Under the pieces are notes generated by a model. That model was not told the origin of the DNA. It did no database searches and worked only from the letters and a program-made list of their open reading frames with translations. Source: Minisyncoccota bacterium (lineage in GTDB: Bacteria > Patescibacteriota > Minisyncoccia > Phycocordibacterales > UBA918). Taken from it: a DNA stretch of 64,000 nucleotides. The stretch is taken from NCBI GenBank assembly GCA_041389045.1, contig JAWKSQ010000001.1, positions 203,063-267,062 on the forward strand. The letters are read 5' to 3'. This document shows, piece after piece, positions 4,594 to 45,877 of this stretch (position 1 is its first letter; each line of letters opens with the position of its first letter). Made by a program: the position numbers and the translations under genes.

Positions 4594-6278
4594 ATGAAAG
4601 AAGTTATTGAACAAGCGATTAAAGAGATTTGTCAGGAACTCCGTTTACCAGCGGTGGCTTTTGTCGTCGAGCACCCGGCCGAGACTTCCCATGGTGACTA
4701 CGCTTGTAACATAGCCTTGGTGCTTAGTAAGCAGGTCGGAAAGCGCCACGAGCAGTGGCGGAAGAACTGCTTGTGGCGCTTGATGGTCAAATCGAATATG
4801 TTGATCGCTTAGAAATAGCTGGTCCTGGCTTCATTAACTTCTATTTAGCTCAAGAATTTTTTGTGAGTGAACTGGTCCGTATCCATGAACTTGGTGATAG
4901 TTGGGGGAAGAATAGTGACTTAGTAGGGAAGAAGGTGCTAGTAGAATACACCGACCCCAATCCGTTTAAAGAGTTTCATATCGGGCATCTTTTCACCAAC
5001 GCCGTCGGTGAAAGTATCGCTCGACTATTTATGATGCAGGGAGCTGATACTAAGCGTATCAATTACCAAGGTGATGTAGGTTTGCATGTGGCGCACGCTG
5101 TGTGGGGAATGCAGAAACTAGGTATTTCCCGGGTAGTGACTTTTCGGCGCGTGAACTCGGCAAAGCCTATGCTCTCGGCGCCACAGCCTACAAAAATGAA
5201 GAGGAGAGGCCGTCGCTGAGATTAAGTCCATCAATAAAAAAATCTACGAACGTAGTGACGACAGTGTGAATGCGCTTTATGATGCTGGTCGAAAGGTTTC
5301 GCTAGAATATTTTGCGACAGTTTATAAAGTGTTAGGGACGGAGTTTTCTGATTACTTTTTTGAAAGTGAGACTGGTCCGCTGGGTAAAAAGTTGGTCTTA
5401 GAAAATCCAGAAATATTCCCTTTAAGTGATGGAGCCAATGTTTTTAAGGGGGAAGAGTACGGTCTGCATACTAGAGTATTTTTGAATAAAGAAGGTTTAC
5501 CGACCTACGAAGCGAAAGAATTAGCTTTGGCTAAACTAAAAGAAGACAGACTTGGCACTTATGATTTGTCGGTTATTTCTACTGCTAGTGAAGTTAATGA
5601 ATATTTTAAAGTGCTCCTTAAAGCTCTTAGTTTTATTTACCCAGAACTATCGGCTAAGACTGAACATATCGGGCATGGCATGGTCAGACTAACGACCGGT
5701 AAGATGTCATCACGAACTGGTGATGTGATACCGGCTCTGGATTTTATTGATGAAGTGGCCGAGTCAGCCACTAAAAAATGGCCGACAGCGGACATACTGA
5801 GCCTGACACTGATTTAGCTTGGGAGGTGGCGATTGCGGCTATCAAGTACACCACGCTTCGTGGCAATATCACCCAGAATTCTATTTTTGATAAAGACAAG
5901 GCTTTGTCGTTTGAGGGCGACTCTGGTCCGTACTTGCAGTATACCCATGCGCGTATTTGTAGTGTGCTCGAGAAGGCTAAGCTCTCTGGACTAAGTGCTG
6001 ATGTGGATTTGGCGCCAGAGAAACCATACGCTGTCGAGCATCTTATCTATATTTTCCCGGAAGTAGTGAAAGAGGCGTTTTTAGAAAGAGCGCCACACAA
6101 AGTGACTGGCTTTTTGACGGAGCTCGCTAGTGCTTTTAACTCATTTTACGCCGAAGAAAAAATCGCCGATGATACTGATACTTATGCTCCATATAAGATT
6201 GCTGTGACAGAAGCAGTAAGGCAAACAATCAAAAATGGTCTTTGGATATTAGCTATCAAAGCCCCAGAGCGGATGTAA
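4594..6278 (+). CDS. argS: arginine--tRNA ligase, split into 4 ORFs by four single-base deletions
   Basis: All four ORF-track pieces (4582-4812, 4755-5219, 5266-5817, 5778-6278) read as consecutive ArgRS segments (..EYTDPNPFKEFHIGHL.., ..KMSSRTGDV.., ..LQYTHARICS..). Frame changes sit near 4748 (aaa), 5126-5128 (ccc), about 5203 (gagagg) and 5771-5776 (a6). Confidence 0.9.
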
Positions 6279-41328: not shown

Positions 41329-41544
41329 CCTTACAGGAATGTAAGGGTGTATGGTGGATGCCTAGGCTTCAAGAAGCGATGAAGGACGTGTTATGGCTGC
41401 GATAAGTTTCGGCGAGGTGCCAAATAACCTTTGACCCGGAAATGTCCGAATGGGGAAACCCTCCTGTCATCGGCAGGAACCTATGTATGTAGGAGCTCAC
41501 CCAGCGAAGTGAAACATCTCAGTAGCTGGAGGAAAAGAAAGCAA

Positions 41545-41611
41545 TATACGGAACTTTCTTTCTGATCAGATTCAACTTCGGTTGAGCCATTATGATCAGG
41601 AAGAAGGTTCT
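41545..41611 (+). other. about 66-nt expansion hairpin in 23S domain I
   Basis: E. coli GGAAAAGAAATCAACCGAGATTCC is interrupted as ggaaaagaaagcaa[..]tgcgattcc. The insert is a long hairpin: cggaactttctttctgatcag / (c)tgatcaggaagaaggttc. Confidence 0.6.
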
Positions 41612-41882
41612 TGCGATTCCCTTAATAGCGGCGAGCGAAACGGGATCAGCCCAAACCGTACGTATTTATATGTGCGGGGTTGTAGGGCAAAGACGGCATT
41701 TAGTTGCGAAGAGTTACAAAACAGATTGATAAAAAAACGCTTTGGAAAGAGCGACCCCAGAAGGTAATAGTCCTGTATTTGAAATCTATCTGACTCTTTT
41801 GTTTTTGTTCCTGAGTAGTTCGAGACATGAATAGCTCGAATGAATCTACCAGAACTAACTGGAAAGGCTAAATATTCTTGAA

Positions 41883-41928
<46 letters not shown>

Positions 41929-43368
41929 GGAGAGGGGAGTGAAATAGATCTGAAACCATACACCTACAAGGAGTCGGAGCCTCAATTTATTGGGGTGACG
42001 GCGTGCCTATTGAAGAATGAGCCGGCGAGTGTGTCTTTGTCCTTTGTCTAAGTGGTAAACCCACGGAGGCGCAGTGAAAGCGAGCGTGAATAGCGCGAAT
42101 ATAGGGCAGGGATACGACCCGAAGCGTGATGAGCTTGCCATGAGCAGGGTGAAGCGACAGTAAAATGTCGTGGAGGCCCGAACCGGTTGGCCGTACAAAA
42201 CCATCGGATGACTTGTGGTAAGGAGTGAAAAGCTTATCGAATTACGTAATAGCTGGTTCTCTCCGAAACAGCTTTTGGGTTGGCGTCGCGTGGTCCCCCT
42301 GGGGGTAGAGCACTGGAAAGAAAAGACAGGGAGAAATCTCGCTTTTCTTATCAAACTCCGAATACCAGTGGATTATAGCGCGGCAGTTAGACTATGGGGG
42401 AGAAGCTCCATTGGTCGAAAGGGAAACAGCCCAGATCGCCAGTTAAGGTCCCTAAATATATACTCAGTGCAAAGTGAGGAGGTGAGGATTCACTAACAGT
42501 CAGGAGGTTGGCTTAGAAGCAGCCATCCTTTAAAGAAAGCGTAACAGCTCACTGATCGAGAGTCCTTGCGCCGAAGATGATCGGGGCTCAAGTATATTAC
42601 CGAAACTGCGAATTCGTACCTTAGGGTACGAGTGGTAGGAGAGCGTTCGTATCTGCGATGAATGGAAGGCGGAAGCCGACCTGGAGCGATGCGAAGTGAG
42701 AATGCCGGCACAAGTAACCGCAAGACGGGTGAGACCCCCGTCCGCCGAAATACCAAGGTTTCCTTTGCGATGGTGATCATCGAAGGGTTAGTCGGTCCTA
42801 AGAGAATCCCGAATGGGGGACTCGATGGATAGCAGGTTAATATTCCTGCACACTGCTGCGTTCCTATGGAGGGACGGAGCGTTGTACTTACAGCATCTTA
42901 TTGGATTGGTGCTGGAGCACTGAGGAAGTCACGTAGGCAAATCCGCGTGGCAATATTCCGAGGTGAGTCTGAAGGTGAGGCTACGGCCGATCTGATGTAA
43001 GGAGCACGCTTCCGAGAAAAACTTCGTTTGGGTTAAGCATAGTGGTTCCGTACCGCAAACCGACACAGGTGGTAGAGTCGAGAAGACTAAGGCGAACGAG
43101 TGAGAGGTCCTCAAGGAACTCGGCAAAAAAGCGACCGTAACTTAGGGATAAGGTCCGCCCTTATAGAAGTATAAGGGCCGCAGCGAAAGATTTCCTGCCG
43201 ACTGTTTAACAAAAACACAGCTCTCTGCGAACACGTAAGTGGATGTATAGAGGGTGACGCCTGACCTATGCTGGAAGGTTAAGTACGGGGGGTGGTATGT
43301 ATTTATATGTACTGCTGGACTGTATAAGCCCCAGTAAATGTCAGCGATAACTATAATCGTTCTAAGGT

Positions 43369-43586
43369 CGAGCACCTTATTTTTAATAAGGTGCTCGACG
43401 GATTGGAACGGTTATAGGTTAAACAGCCTAGCCACAGTTACCTTACCTACGGAAACGTAGAGTAATCCAAATCTAGCCAACAAGAGACCAAATGCTAGAC
43501 ATCCGCAACGGGTAATGCCGTGGATGAAGATAGAGTCCTATTGGTGCACTTGCAAGTAAGGCTTGCAGTTTAAGAAGGAAAAATAG
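43369..43586 (+). ncRNA. ORF-less group-I-like intron in 23S at E. coli position 1931
   Basis: The exons rejoin as CTAAGGT|AGCGTATTTCCTTGTCGGGTAAGTTCCGAC, matching E. coli C1925-C1961. The 5' exon ends in U and the insert ends in G. The insert has GNRA-capped hairpins (ctacgGAAAcgtag, ..gGTAAt..). Confidence 0.7.
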
Positions 43587-44223
43587 AGCGTATTTCCTTG
43601 TCGGGTAAGTTCCGACGTGCACGAATGGCGTAACGAGTGGGAAACTGTCTCGAGGACCTGCTCGGTGAAAATACAATCCCGGTAAAGATGCCGGGTACCT
43701 GCAGATAGACGAAAAGACCCCAGGTGCTTTACTGTAGCTTCGTATTGAGGCTATTGAATTAATGCGTAGCATAGGAGGGAGACTTTGAAGTGGGCTTTCG
43801 GGTACCATGGAGTCGCCAGTGAAATACCTCTCTTTATTTTGGTAGTTTCTAACCAGATAGAAAAAATCTATCTGAGACAGTGCGTGGCAGGCAGTTTTAG
43901 TGGGGCGCTACCCTCCCAAAAAGTAACGGAGGGGTCTCAAGGTTGGTTAGGCGCGAATGGAAACCGTGCCGATAGTGTAATGGCATAAACCAGCTTGACT
44001 GTAAGGCGTAGATGCCGAACAGACGCGAAAGCGGAGCATAGTGAACCGATGGATTGCGTTAGATGCATCCGGAGATACCCGATAAAAGTAACCCTGGGGA
44101 TAACAGGCTAGTCGTGCCCAAGCGTCCATAGCGACGGCACGGTTCGGCACCTCGATGTCGGCTCGACTTATCCTGGGGCTGGAGCAGGTCCCAAGGGTTT
44201 GGCTGTTCGCCAATTAAAAAGTC

Positions 44224-44261
<38 letters not shown>

Positions 44262-44308
44262 CTCCTATCTACTGCAGGCGTCGATTCTTGAGGAGAGTTG
44301 TTCCTAGT

Positions 44309-45089
44309 AAATTTTTGCTACTTTAGGGAGAGATCCCTAATGACAACATGGCTTATAACGGTGAAGTCTACGTCACTTCCGGTTTTAGAGGTCAATACAC
44401 CATGGTCCAGTGTGTATTGAATTCGCTTGAGGACCGGAAAATTGATATGATAATACCGTGGGAAGTCGATCCAAAACAGATTTAGCATACATTGCAGGTT
44501 TCCTTGATGGAGATGGAAGCATAATGTTGCAAGTAAAACTTCGCAGTGACACCAGTCGCGGCGTGAGATTTATGACTACATTATGTCTCTATCAAGATAC
44601 TCGCCACGCGAAGCCACTTAGCTGGATGCGTGAAGTACTTGGTATCGGGTATTTATCCAATCGTAATGATGGGATGACCGAGCTAAGGATTAATGGTTTT
44701 GCTTCAGTACACAAAGTGCTTACACAACTACGACCTTTTATAAGATTCAAGACAGTTCAAGCGGATGCTTTAATGCAGGCTTGTACAATTTTGAATTCAA
44801 AAAAGATTAGTAAATTGTCTGAGCAAGAACTGCAGAGTTTAGTAGAAATTGTCTTTTTAATTAAAGACCACAACTACAAAAGCAAAGCTACTTTGTGTAA
44901 AGAAACATTGCTACTTCGATTGGGTTTGACCCCGTAACGACTTGCGCTGAAAGATGCGCGGACGCATACGCTGAGGAATCATTTCATAGAAAATGACTGC
45001 TCGTATGTGTAAGATGCCATCACCCTCGCTACTGTCCATGTAGACGGGTGAAGATATAGTCTGTGCTCCTAGAAATAGGGGAATCAACG
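44309..45089 (+). mobile_element. group-I-like intron splitting the 23S sarcin-ricin loop (after U2656, E. coli numbering), carrying a LAGLIDADG ORF
   Basis: The exons rejoin as TTCCTAGT|ACGAGAGGACCGG. The 5' exon ends in U and the insert ends in G. A possible P1 pairs uagU with Gcua (44317-44320). Hairpins carry GAGA and GAAA tetraloops. Confidence 0.75.
44458..44937 (+). CDS. LAGLIDADG homing endonuclease (single-motif, I-CreI-like size)
   Basis: 159 aa with ..DLAYIAGFLDGDGSIML.. close to the N-terminus, located inside the 23S intron. The start is GTG. Confidence 0.88.
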   Translation: MGSRSKTDLAYIAGFLDGDGSIMLQVKLRSDTSRGVRFMTTLCLYQDTRHAKPLSWMREVLGIGYLSNRNDGMTELRINGFASVHKVLTQLRPFIRFKTVQADALMQACTILNSKKISKLSEQELQSLVEIVFLIKDHNYKSKATLCKETLLLRLGLTP

Positions 45090-45168
45090 ACGAGAGGACC
45101 GGAATGAACGAACCTCTGGTCTATCGGCTGTCACGCCAGTGGCACCGCCGAGTAGCTATGTTCGGAAT

Positions 45169-45201
<33 letters not shown>

Positions 45202-45620
45202 AACTCCAAGATTAGGAATCATTAAGTCCCCTGAGAGATGATCAGGTTGATAGGCACTAAGTGGAAGCACAGCAATGTGTGGAGCTGAGGTGTACTAATA
45301 GGACGTAATTCCTGTAAGGAACGTTGCACATCGCCTTGAGCGTAAATTAACGAATTTCTTCGTTGCAGTGTCAAAAATAATTTTCGCTGGACTTCGTGTC
45401 CCGCTTGAATTCTTTTTGACACCACGCCTCGAAATTCATTTAATTTTCATCTCAAGGTTTGAAACAAGCTGTATGATTTGAAAAGTGTTTAAGTTGTGAT
45501 TTTACCTAGGGTCGGCAAAAGCTTCGCTTTTGCCGACCAAGAATTAGAATATGCGGTATAGTTTAAGACTATATTTATATTGAAAGTAGTAATAAGATCG
45601 TCAAGGTCTTTACTTTAAGT

Positions 45621-45697
45621 CTCTCTGTAGCTCAGCCGGGTAGAGCGTTGGACTCCAAATCCAAAGGTCGCAAGTTCAAATCTTGCCAGGGGGACCA
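45621..45697 (+). tRNA. tRNA-Trp (anticodon CCA), CCA end encoded, located between 23S and 5S
   Basis: CTCTCTG TA GCTC AGCCGGGTA GAGC G TTGGA CT-CCA-AA TCCAA AGGTC GCAAG TTCAAAT CTTGC CAGGGGG A CCA. It is bracketed by a 15-bp long-range stem (45583-45597 / 45716-45730). Confidence 0.85.
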
Positions 45698-45767: not shown

Positions 45768-45877
45768 TGTTGGTGCTTTAGCGGAGAGGGTCCACCCGAT
45801 CTCATTCCGAACTCGGAAGTTAAGCTCTCCATCGCCGATGGTACTTCGCAAGAGGAAGAGTAGGTAGGCGCCAACAT
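45768..45877 (+). rRNA. rrf: 5S ribosomal RNA
   Basis: ..CCGAACTCGGAAGTTAAG..CGCCGATGGTAC..GAAGAGTAGGTAGGCGCCAACA with the ends pairing (tgttggtgc/gcgccaaca). Confidence 0.9.

Follow-up and report, generated by a model that had tools for sequence, protein, structure and literature searches.

A 781-nucleotide (nt) insert divides the sarcin-ricin loop (SRL) of the 23S rRNA gene in a 64,000-nt stretch of DNA from a Minisyncoccota bacterium (hereafter the window; positions 203,063 to 267,062 of contig JAWKSQ010000001.1, assembly GCA_041389045.1). From the analysis below we conclude that the insert is very probably a mobile group I intron with the architecture of subgroup IA, which belongs to an intron lineage that is common in the rRNA genes of the Candidate Phyla Radiation (CPR)/Patescibacteria and occupies the insertion hot spot 23IS14, after U2656 (E. 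coli numbering) in the SRL. The evidence consists of the anatomy of the insert, the covariation within its helices, the distribution of its family and the homology of the protein that it encodes. A preliminary description of this DNA, made from its letters alone, had read the insert as a group I intron with a homing-endonuclease gene; comparative structure, an intron relative that lacks the open reading frame (ORF) and a protein match of the I-CreI type all bear this reading out.

An insert within the sarcin-ricin loop

At its default threshold, the match of the Rfam model for bacterial large-subunit (LSU) rRNA ends at 44295. When the same model is applied to positions 44200-45400, a block of 791 nt is left unaligned against 10 model positions, which gives a net insert of 781 nt, and apart from the inserts the 23S exons match the LSU model over its full extent. 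The alignment with E. coli rrlH (CUCCUAGU2656 / A2657CGAGAGG) places the interruption at the same point, so that both comparisons agree with the 781-nt insert after U2656 that had been described from the sequence. The junctions read ..GUUCCUAGU(44308) / AAAUUU...AUCAACG(45089) / ACGAGAGGACCGG; in a longer reading, the insert starts AAAUUUUUGCUAC and ends GGGGAAUCAACG(45089), and the 3' exon then continues ACGAGAGGACCGGAAU. Because one A fits on either side of the insert, the site can be numbered in two ways: the group I convention (exon-final U, intron-final G) gives 2656, and plain alignment gives 2657. The exon-final U and the insert-final G on which the preliminary description had relied are both present. 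Among the matches listed from a metagenome search whose pattern did not contain that G, every SRL-adjacent member of the family has a G before ACGAGAGG.

A conserved and covarying ribozyme core

We compared 27 full-length introns from the same site (334-885 nt), aligned with MAFFT after the ORF loop had been trimmed (alignment A1). Over the 61 modelled pairs, 94.9% of the cells form standard pairs, against 38-43% when the partners are slid by 1-3 columns, a contrast that is inflated in favour of our fold, which was derived by comparison from the A1 sequences themselves. Both sides of the pair change in 30 of the 61 modelled pairs, and none of 500 shuffles reaches any of the five measures. The helices that covary are P2, P3 (long-range and pseudoknotted with P7), P5, P6a, P7.1, P8 and P9. 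Four of the five pairs of P3 change on both sides (for example, UA in 14 sequences vs CG in 11), as do five pairs of P6a. P4, P6 and P7 show perfect complementarity and little or no variation, P6 being invariant.

The window copy has all of its core helices intact and matches the family consensus at every invariant position. At its 5' end, the U44308·G44317 wobble marks the 5' splice site, and UG is present there in 27 of 27 same-site homologues; the short U-G-closed P1 that had been thought possible with gcua at 44317-44320 is thus found. Five P1 pairs, the U·G included, are identical in all 27 sequences, and the sixth, A44310-U44315, is a standard pair in 26 of them (AU 23, GU 2, GC 1). The GNRA-capped helices remarked upon earlier are represented by P2, with its GAGA loop, and P9, with its GAAA loop. 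The 3' strand that runs from J8/7 into P7, AAGAUAUAGUCU, matches the consensus of the Rfam group I intron model Intron_gpI, UgAAGAUAUAGUCu, and the family motif TGACCCCGTAACGACT includes the 5' strand of P7. The G-C pair beside the P7 bulge is the presumed guanosine-binding site, by analogy with the Tetrahymena intron. Two pairings considered at first were replaced: for P6, AAGUCG (44463-44468)/CGACUU (44938-44943) gave way to GGGAAGUC/GACCCC, and for P7, GCGCGGAC/GUCUGUGC gave way to ACGACU/AGUCU, the replacements being invariant in all members.

The segment between P7 and the 3' strand of P3 folds as two hairpins, P7.1 and P7.2, in 22 of the 27 introns, and all four pairs of P7.1 change on both sides. 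Four of the five exceptions were shortened by the extraction pattern, and one (locus L212) has three hairpins. Given that P7.1 and P7.2 together are a hallmark of subgroup IA, we place the intron in this subgroup.

A break in the SRL backbone, such as that made by alpha-sarcin, inactivates the ribosome. The preliminary description had left two outcomes, either that the insert is removed or that the rRNA functions in pieces. The second would correspond to an intervening sequence (IVS) that is excised without ligation, in the manner of RNase III, and leaves a fragmented 23S rRNA. Fragmented 23S rRNAs are known from bacteria, and IVSs of this kind are suspected by Tsurumaki et al. at the CPR sites 23IS2 and 23IS4 (PMC11270868). 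We nevertheless judge an unligated IVS very improbable at this site, because a complete ribozyme core with compensatory changes would have no role in RNase III excision, the fold has no long terminal stem that links the ends of the insert, and the product would carry just such a break in the SRL. An rRNA in pieces is likewise unlikely because compensatory evolution has maintained the entire ribozyme core in derivatives without an ORF. Of the two outcomes, we infer removal of the insert.

Relatives at the same junction and the wider family

A search for the pattern G+ACGAGAGGACCGG across genomes, one per species, found five CPR metagenome-assembled genomes (MAGs) that carry a homologous insert at the same junction; their labels are Saccharibacteria (three), Yanofskybacteria (one) and Paceibacterota (one). 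Every named genome in which this intron occurs is a CPR MAG. The 16-mer TGACCCCGTAACGACT, which spans P6'-J6/7-P7, is common to all copies, and a metagenome scan for it returned at least 132 matches on at least 120 contigs; at least about 30 of the matches listed sit 115-200 nt upstream of G/ACGAGAGG. Taken together, a homologous intron of 334-885 nt, with or without an ORF, occupies the same junction on at least 33 independent contigs from different studies.

This recurrence bears on the possibility that the junction is an assembly chimera or that the gene is an rRNA pseudogene. The window seems to come from a metagenome-type assembly, in which such an origin has to be considered, and two of its proteins that were looked up have no exact match in the reference collection. 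Since the junction is shared by so many independent contigs, and since the 23S exons align with a high score over the full length of the Rfam model, we find a chimera or pseudogene scarcely credible, and we continue to regard the insert as a group I intron in a genuine 23S rRNA gene.

The lineage marked by TGACCCCGTAACGACT extends beyond the SRL. It occupies at least five 23S sites, with 3' exons that start at E. coli positions 1952, 2450, 2501, 2512 and 2657, as well as sites in 16S rRNA, and several contigs (among loci L122-L241, e.g. L125, L129, L137, L187 and L195) carry two copies of the family in one rRNA gene. The closest exons among the fetched contigs are those of L194 (~89%), and the closest intron is that of L169 (~81%), a mismatch that weakly suggests horizontal movement. 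The closest named 23S belongs to a Saccharibacteria MAG (82%).

Three of the carriers (L052, L080 and L083) are MAGs labelled Candidatus Saccharibacteria, and L080 has a second copy of the family at 2449/2450. In their 2024 survey, Tsurumaki et al. report that group I introns and endonuclease genes are almost absent from the rRNA of Saccharibacteria (PMC11270868). Either the labels of these MAGs are loose or this lineage is more intron-rich than has been sampled. One locus from Vicinamibacteria (L112) was considered as a non-CPR intron at the SRL site and rejected, its 23S being uninterrupted and reading AGGACGAGAGG. At ~5060-5075 of this locus (CAWIMD010000003.1) the SRL reads AGGACGAGAGGACC, with G replacing the universally conserved U2656; this may reflect true variation or a mistake in sequencing.

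The endonuclease reading frame and its predicted target

The 159-residue, single-motif LAGLIDADG frame that had been recognised in the insert lies in the P6 loop, and its product matches Pfam PF00961 (LAGLIDADG_1) with 35.6 bits against a cut-off of 23.1 (E=1.9e-8). Its LAGLIDADG motif reads LAYIAGFLDGDGS. Residues 5-139 align with I-CreI, I-CvuI and I-MsoI in the PDB (E=1e-9 to 1e-15), and single-chain fusions of I-CreI and I-MsoI match the same residues at up to 1e-28. An intact ORF of 155-164 amino acids, with 50-62% identity to the window protein, is found in 18 of 28 same-site introns. The other 10 contain a frameshift, a partial deletion or no ORF and keep the ribozyme core, as would be expected from the cycle of gain and decay of homing endonucleases. 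GFLDGDGS (with the D of GDG), the Q of YQD and the K of RFK are invariant across the 18 intact orthologues; we take these catalytic residues to be the counterparts of I-CreI D20, Q47 and K98.

The intact ORFs always start at a GUG in the 3' strand of P4 (44458-44460 in the window) and stop at a UAA in J6/7. The P6a' and P6' strands (44920-44937 region) code for the C-terminal residues GLTP, which are invariant in 18 of 18 intact orthologues. As the ends of the ORF fall within the strands of P4, P6a', P6' and J6/7, the structure of the RNA constrains the ends of the protein.

In the intron-less target, TTGTTCCTAGT/ACGAGAGGACC, the central 10 bp CTAGT|ACGAG are 8/10 symmetric, and the outer 12 bp are asymmetric. 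The symmetry appears only when the insertion site is taken as the centre, and every neighbouring register lacks it. A pseudo-palindromic target of this kind would suit a homodimeric enzyme. We predict that the homodimer would cut intron-less 23S rDNA (TTGTTCCTAGTACGAGAGGACC) at CTAGT|ACGAG, after which repair would copy the intron into the empty site (homing).

Splicing model and a candidate exon-binding loop

Conservation and homology predict that the RNA is catalytic, splices and ligates its exons, just as they predict DNA cleavage by the protein. In the 23S precursor, P1 would arise from pairing of the guide UUGCUA with the exon-end UAGU and would place the U·G wobble at the splice site. 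The active site would be made up of the P3-P8 and P4-P6 domains, its guanosine pocket lying in P7. Free guanosine would attack after U44308; G45089 would then occupy the pocket, and the exons would be joined, which would restore AGUA-CGAGAGGACC.

Given that P10 is limited to one A-U pair, we propose that, in the second step, the 3' exon may be positioned by a peripheral loop: the P5b loop UGGUCC would hold this exon by pairing with GGACCG (+7 to +12). The P5 domain measures 53-154 nt in SRL-site introns vs 18-71 nt at the other sites of the family. Its loop in SRL-site members is CGGUCC (UGGUCC in the window), and the exon partner GGACCG, at +7..+12, corresponds to 23S 2663-2668. A 5/5 complement to exon +7..+11 is present in 27 of 33 introns, and in 23 of these it lies in an unpaired loop of the minimum-energy fold. 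Where the exon reads GGACU, the loop is AGUCC or AGUUC in three of three introns, two of which stretch the complement to 10-12 nt, and an A at that loop position occurs in only one of 30 introns whose exon reads GGACC (Fisher p=7e-4, uncorrected for phylogeny). At sites 2450, 2501 and 2512, exon-complementary P5 loops show no clear excess over foreign exons, with a weak signal at 2501.

The P5 domain also holds an internal string that resembles the exon. The sequence CUUGAGGACC(R)GAA (GAGGACC core) is present in 22 of 24 SRL-site introns vs one of 49 at other sites. Positions 44426-44439 of the window read CUUGAGGACCGGAA, of which the last 11 nt are identical to 3' exon positions 45094-45104, and the ACCRGAA part of the string forms P5a. 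We considered the internal GAGGACC as the partner of the GGUCC loop and rejected it: L237 keeps the internal GGACC, yet its loop, AGUCC, matches its exon, GGACU. Since the loop of L237 follows the exon and not the internal copy, the exon is more likely the partner of the loop. A conserved GGAC between P7.1 and P7.2 was rejected in the same role, as several members are without it.

From these observations, we tentatively propose, with somewhat less than even confidence, that the SRL lineage may have swapped P10 for a pairing between the P5 loop and the 3' exon, and that the internal GAGGACC could compete for the loop and so aid release of the ligated rRNA. The pairing of loop and exon appears to be undescribed, and we know of no description of a group I intron in which a peripheral loop that binds the exon is fitted to a single, universally conserved motif of the rRNA. 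If true, the finding would add modestly, though genuinely, to what is known of group I introns.

Evidence against the reading and the question of self-splicing

Besides the inflated contrast with slid partners, several observations weigh against the conclusion that the insert is a self-splicing group I intron whose 3' exon is held by the P5 loop. The window intron scores 23.3 bits on Intron_gpI (RF00028; E=0.0018 on 1.2 kb), below the gathering cut-off of 50 bits. P1, P4, P6 and P7 are supported by conservation and complementarity, not by covariation. The canonical P10 comes to 1 bp, exon A+1 with a guide-strand U, on a direct reading. The support for the loop-exon pairing comes from one covarying position in three sequences, possibly of a single host clade; L182 and L212 (two of the 33) have a short P5 that is without the loop hairpin, and L183 is also without the loop complement.

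The search with covariance models, which had been put forward as a check on the group I reading, has a divided outcome: the window copy falls below the cut-off, while among the ORF-less relatives at the same site L239 reaches 51.4 bits, above it (L234 scores 48.7 and L127 30.5). We ascribe the low score of the window copy to the 480-nt ORF in P6 and to the extra P5 and P7.1/7.2 elements, which break the alignment, and not to a different kind of element. The J8/7-P7-P9 block of this copy (UGAAGAUAUAGUCU...GAAA hairpin) does align to the Intron_gpI consensus.

The low Rfam score of the window copy and its nearly absent canonical P10 would also fit an element that derives from a group I intron and does not splice by itself, either because it depends on a host factor or on its own protein acting as a maturase, or because this copy is splicing-defective and its rRNA gene impaired. 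Some LAGLIDADG proteins act as maturases, according to PMC11270868, and a single 23S gene is visible in the window. Set against this are the intact core helices of the window copy, with the consensus at every invariant position, and the ORF-less relatives of 334-470 nt that keep the core, which argue that the protein is not generally needed. We therefore consider an element that is unable to splice by itself unlikely, and we retain the interpretation as a mobile group I intron.

Features of the locus

The positions of the gene, the intron and its parts are collected in Table 1. A second insert in the same 23S gene, at 43369-43586, is 218 nt long, ORF-less and located after E. coli U1931, the known L1931/23IS7 site; its junctions read exon ..CUAAGGU / intron ..AAUAG / AGCG. 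It is group-I-like by Rfam (25.5 bits, E=1.2e-4) and lies outside the TGACCCCGTAACGACT lineage. Downstream, a tRNA-Trp(CCA) gene (45621-45697) stands between the 23S gene (end 45319) and the 5S gene (45769-45876). The 64-kb window contains no 16S rRNA gene, which makes this an unlinked rRNA operon.

Table 1. Coordinates of the 23S rRNA gene and of the predicted intron elements (positions in the window; counts refer to alignment A1)
Feature	Position	Strand	Details
23S rRNA gene (host gene)	41331..45319	+	RF02541, 2129 bits (5' part) and 216 bits (3' part)
P1 hairpin	44305..44320	+	exon UAGU + intron AA (44305-44310) with guide UUGCUA (44315-44320)
Predicted group I intron, 781 nt	44309..45089	+	in SRL (helix 95), between E. 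coli U2656 and A2657
P2 hairpin, GAGA tetraloop	44323..44340	+	both-side changes in 6/7 pairs
P3 5' strand AUGGC	44348..44352	+	partner GCCAU 45016-45020
P4 5' strand ACGGUG	44358..44363	+	partner UACCGU 44454-44459; 100% paired, nearly invariant
Enlarged P5 domain	44364..44453	+	P5a 44377-44383/44433-44439; P5b hairpin 44393-44419; GAGGACCGGAA 44429-44439
L5b loop UGGUCC	44403..44408	+	complementary to 3' exon GGACCG 45096-45101; proposed 3'-exon-binding loop
ORF, 159 aa, in P6 loop	44458..44937	+	GUG start; single-motif LAGLIDADG, I-CreI type
P6 and P6a 5' strands GGGAAGUC, GAUCCAA	44460..44474	+	partners 44920-44933 (UUGGGUU.GACCCC); close the ORF loop
P7 5' strand A-C(bulge)-GACU	44937..44942	+	partner AGUCU 45058-45062; invariant 27/27
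P7.1 (44944-44959) and P7.2 (44964-45010) hairpins	44944..45010	+	between P7 and P3'
P8 hairpin	45021..45050	+	4/5 outer pairs change on both sides
J8/7 and P7 3' strand AAGAUAUAGUCU	45051..45062	+	conserved catalytic-core strand; nearly invariant
P9 hairpin, GAAA tetraloop	45066..45081	+	100% paired; both-side changes in 5/6 pairs
Terminal G of intron (omega-G)	45089	+	G before ACGAGAGG in SRL-adjacent family
3' exon start ACGAGAGGACCGGAA (SRL 3' half)	45090..45104	+	holds GGACCG 45096-45101

Significance and comparison with known systems

Few RNA elements are as conserved and as sensitive in function as the SRL. An intron at this place shows how far homing elements have spread in the rRNA of bacteria with reduced genomes, and it implies that the cells depend on accurate ribozyme splicing for any working ribosome. 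Inserts of this kind also break rRNA gene calls, as in the LSU match that ends at 44295 here, and confound rRNA-based taxonomy.

The preliminary description took the site to be unrecorded, and this has to be corrected. The site is catalogued by Tsurumaki et al. (2024, J Bacteriol; PMC11270868), who surveyed 348 CPR 23S genes and distinguished 14 insertion hot spots. That paper describes 23IS14, at 'position 2657', as group-I-like, with mostly LAGLIDADG_1 proteins and with ORF-less versions at the same sites, and states that 23IS9, -10, -11, -13 and -14 are unreported in other bacteria. The window insert resembles 23IS14 in gene, position, group-I-like character and single-domain LAGLIDADG_1 protein, and its length lies above the criterion of at least 100 nt. 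I-ShaI, the CPR enzyme shown there to be active, comes from 23IS7 (1931) and not from 23IS14. For 23IS14, the main text and one supplement of PMC11270868 present neither a secondary structure nor a subgroup, and neither an exon-pairing loop nor an analysis of the target; the supplement has no 23IS14 entry. A literature search for introns named L2656 or L2657, or for introns of the sarcin-ricin loop, returned nothing specific, the site being named only by the CPR survey. Intron type and site are thus already published, and the window adds another example together with a covariation-backed fold for the site.

Other group I introns of bacterial 23S rRNA, at L1917, L1931 and L1951 (Thermotoga, Simkania, Coxiella and cyanobacteria), differ from the present one in their sites. 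For the Thermotoga introns, self-splicing is reported to have been shown (Nesbo and Doolittle 2003). All of these sites are distinct from the SRL junction that the intron of the window occupies.

We also compare the intron with Cr.LSU of the Chlamydomonas reinhardtii chloroplast, the I-CreI intron at L2593. Cr.LSU belongs to subgroup IA, lies in 23S domain V/VI and carries, in its P6 loop, the gene for a single-motif LAGLIDADG protein of ~160 residues that acts as a homodimer on a pseudo-palindromic rDNA target. The two introns are alike in subgroup and in the single-motif ORF within the P6 loop, and the window protein aligns with I-CreI over nearly its full length. They differ in site (2656 vs 2593) and in host (a CPR-like bacterium vs an organelle), and the identity between their proteins is low. 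The enlarged P5 with its GGUCC loop is confined to the SRL-site lineage and, unlike the features above that the two introns share, sets it apart from Cr.LSU.

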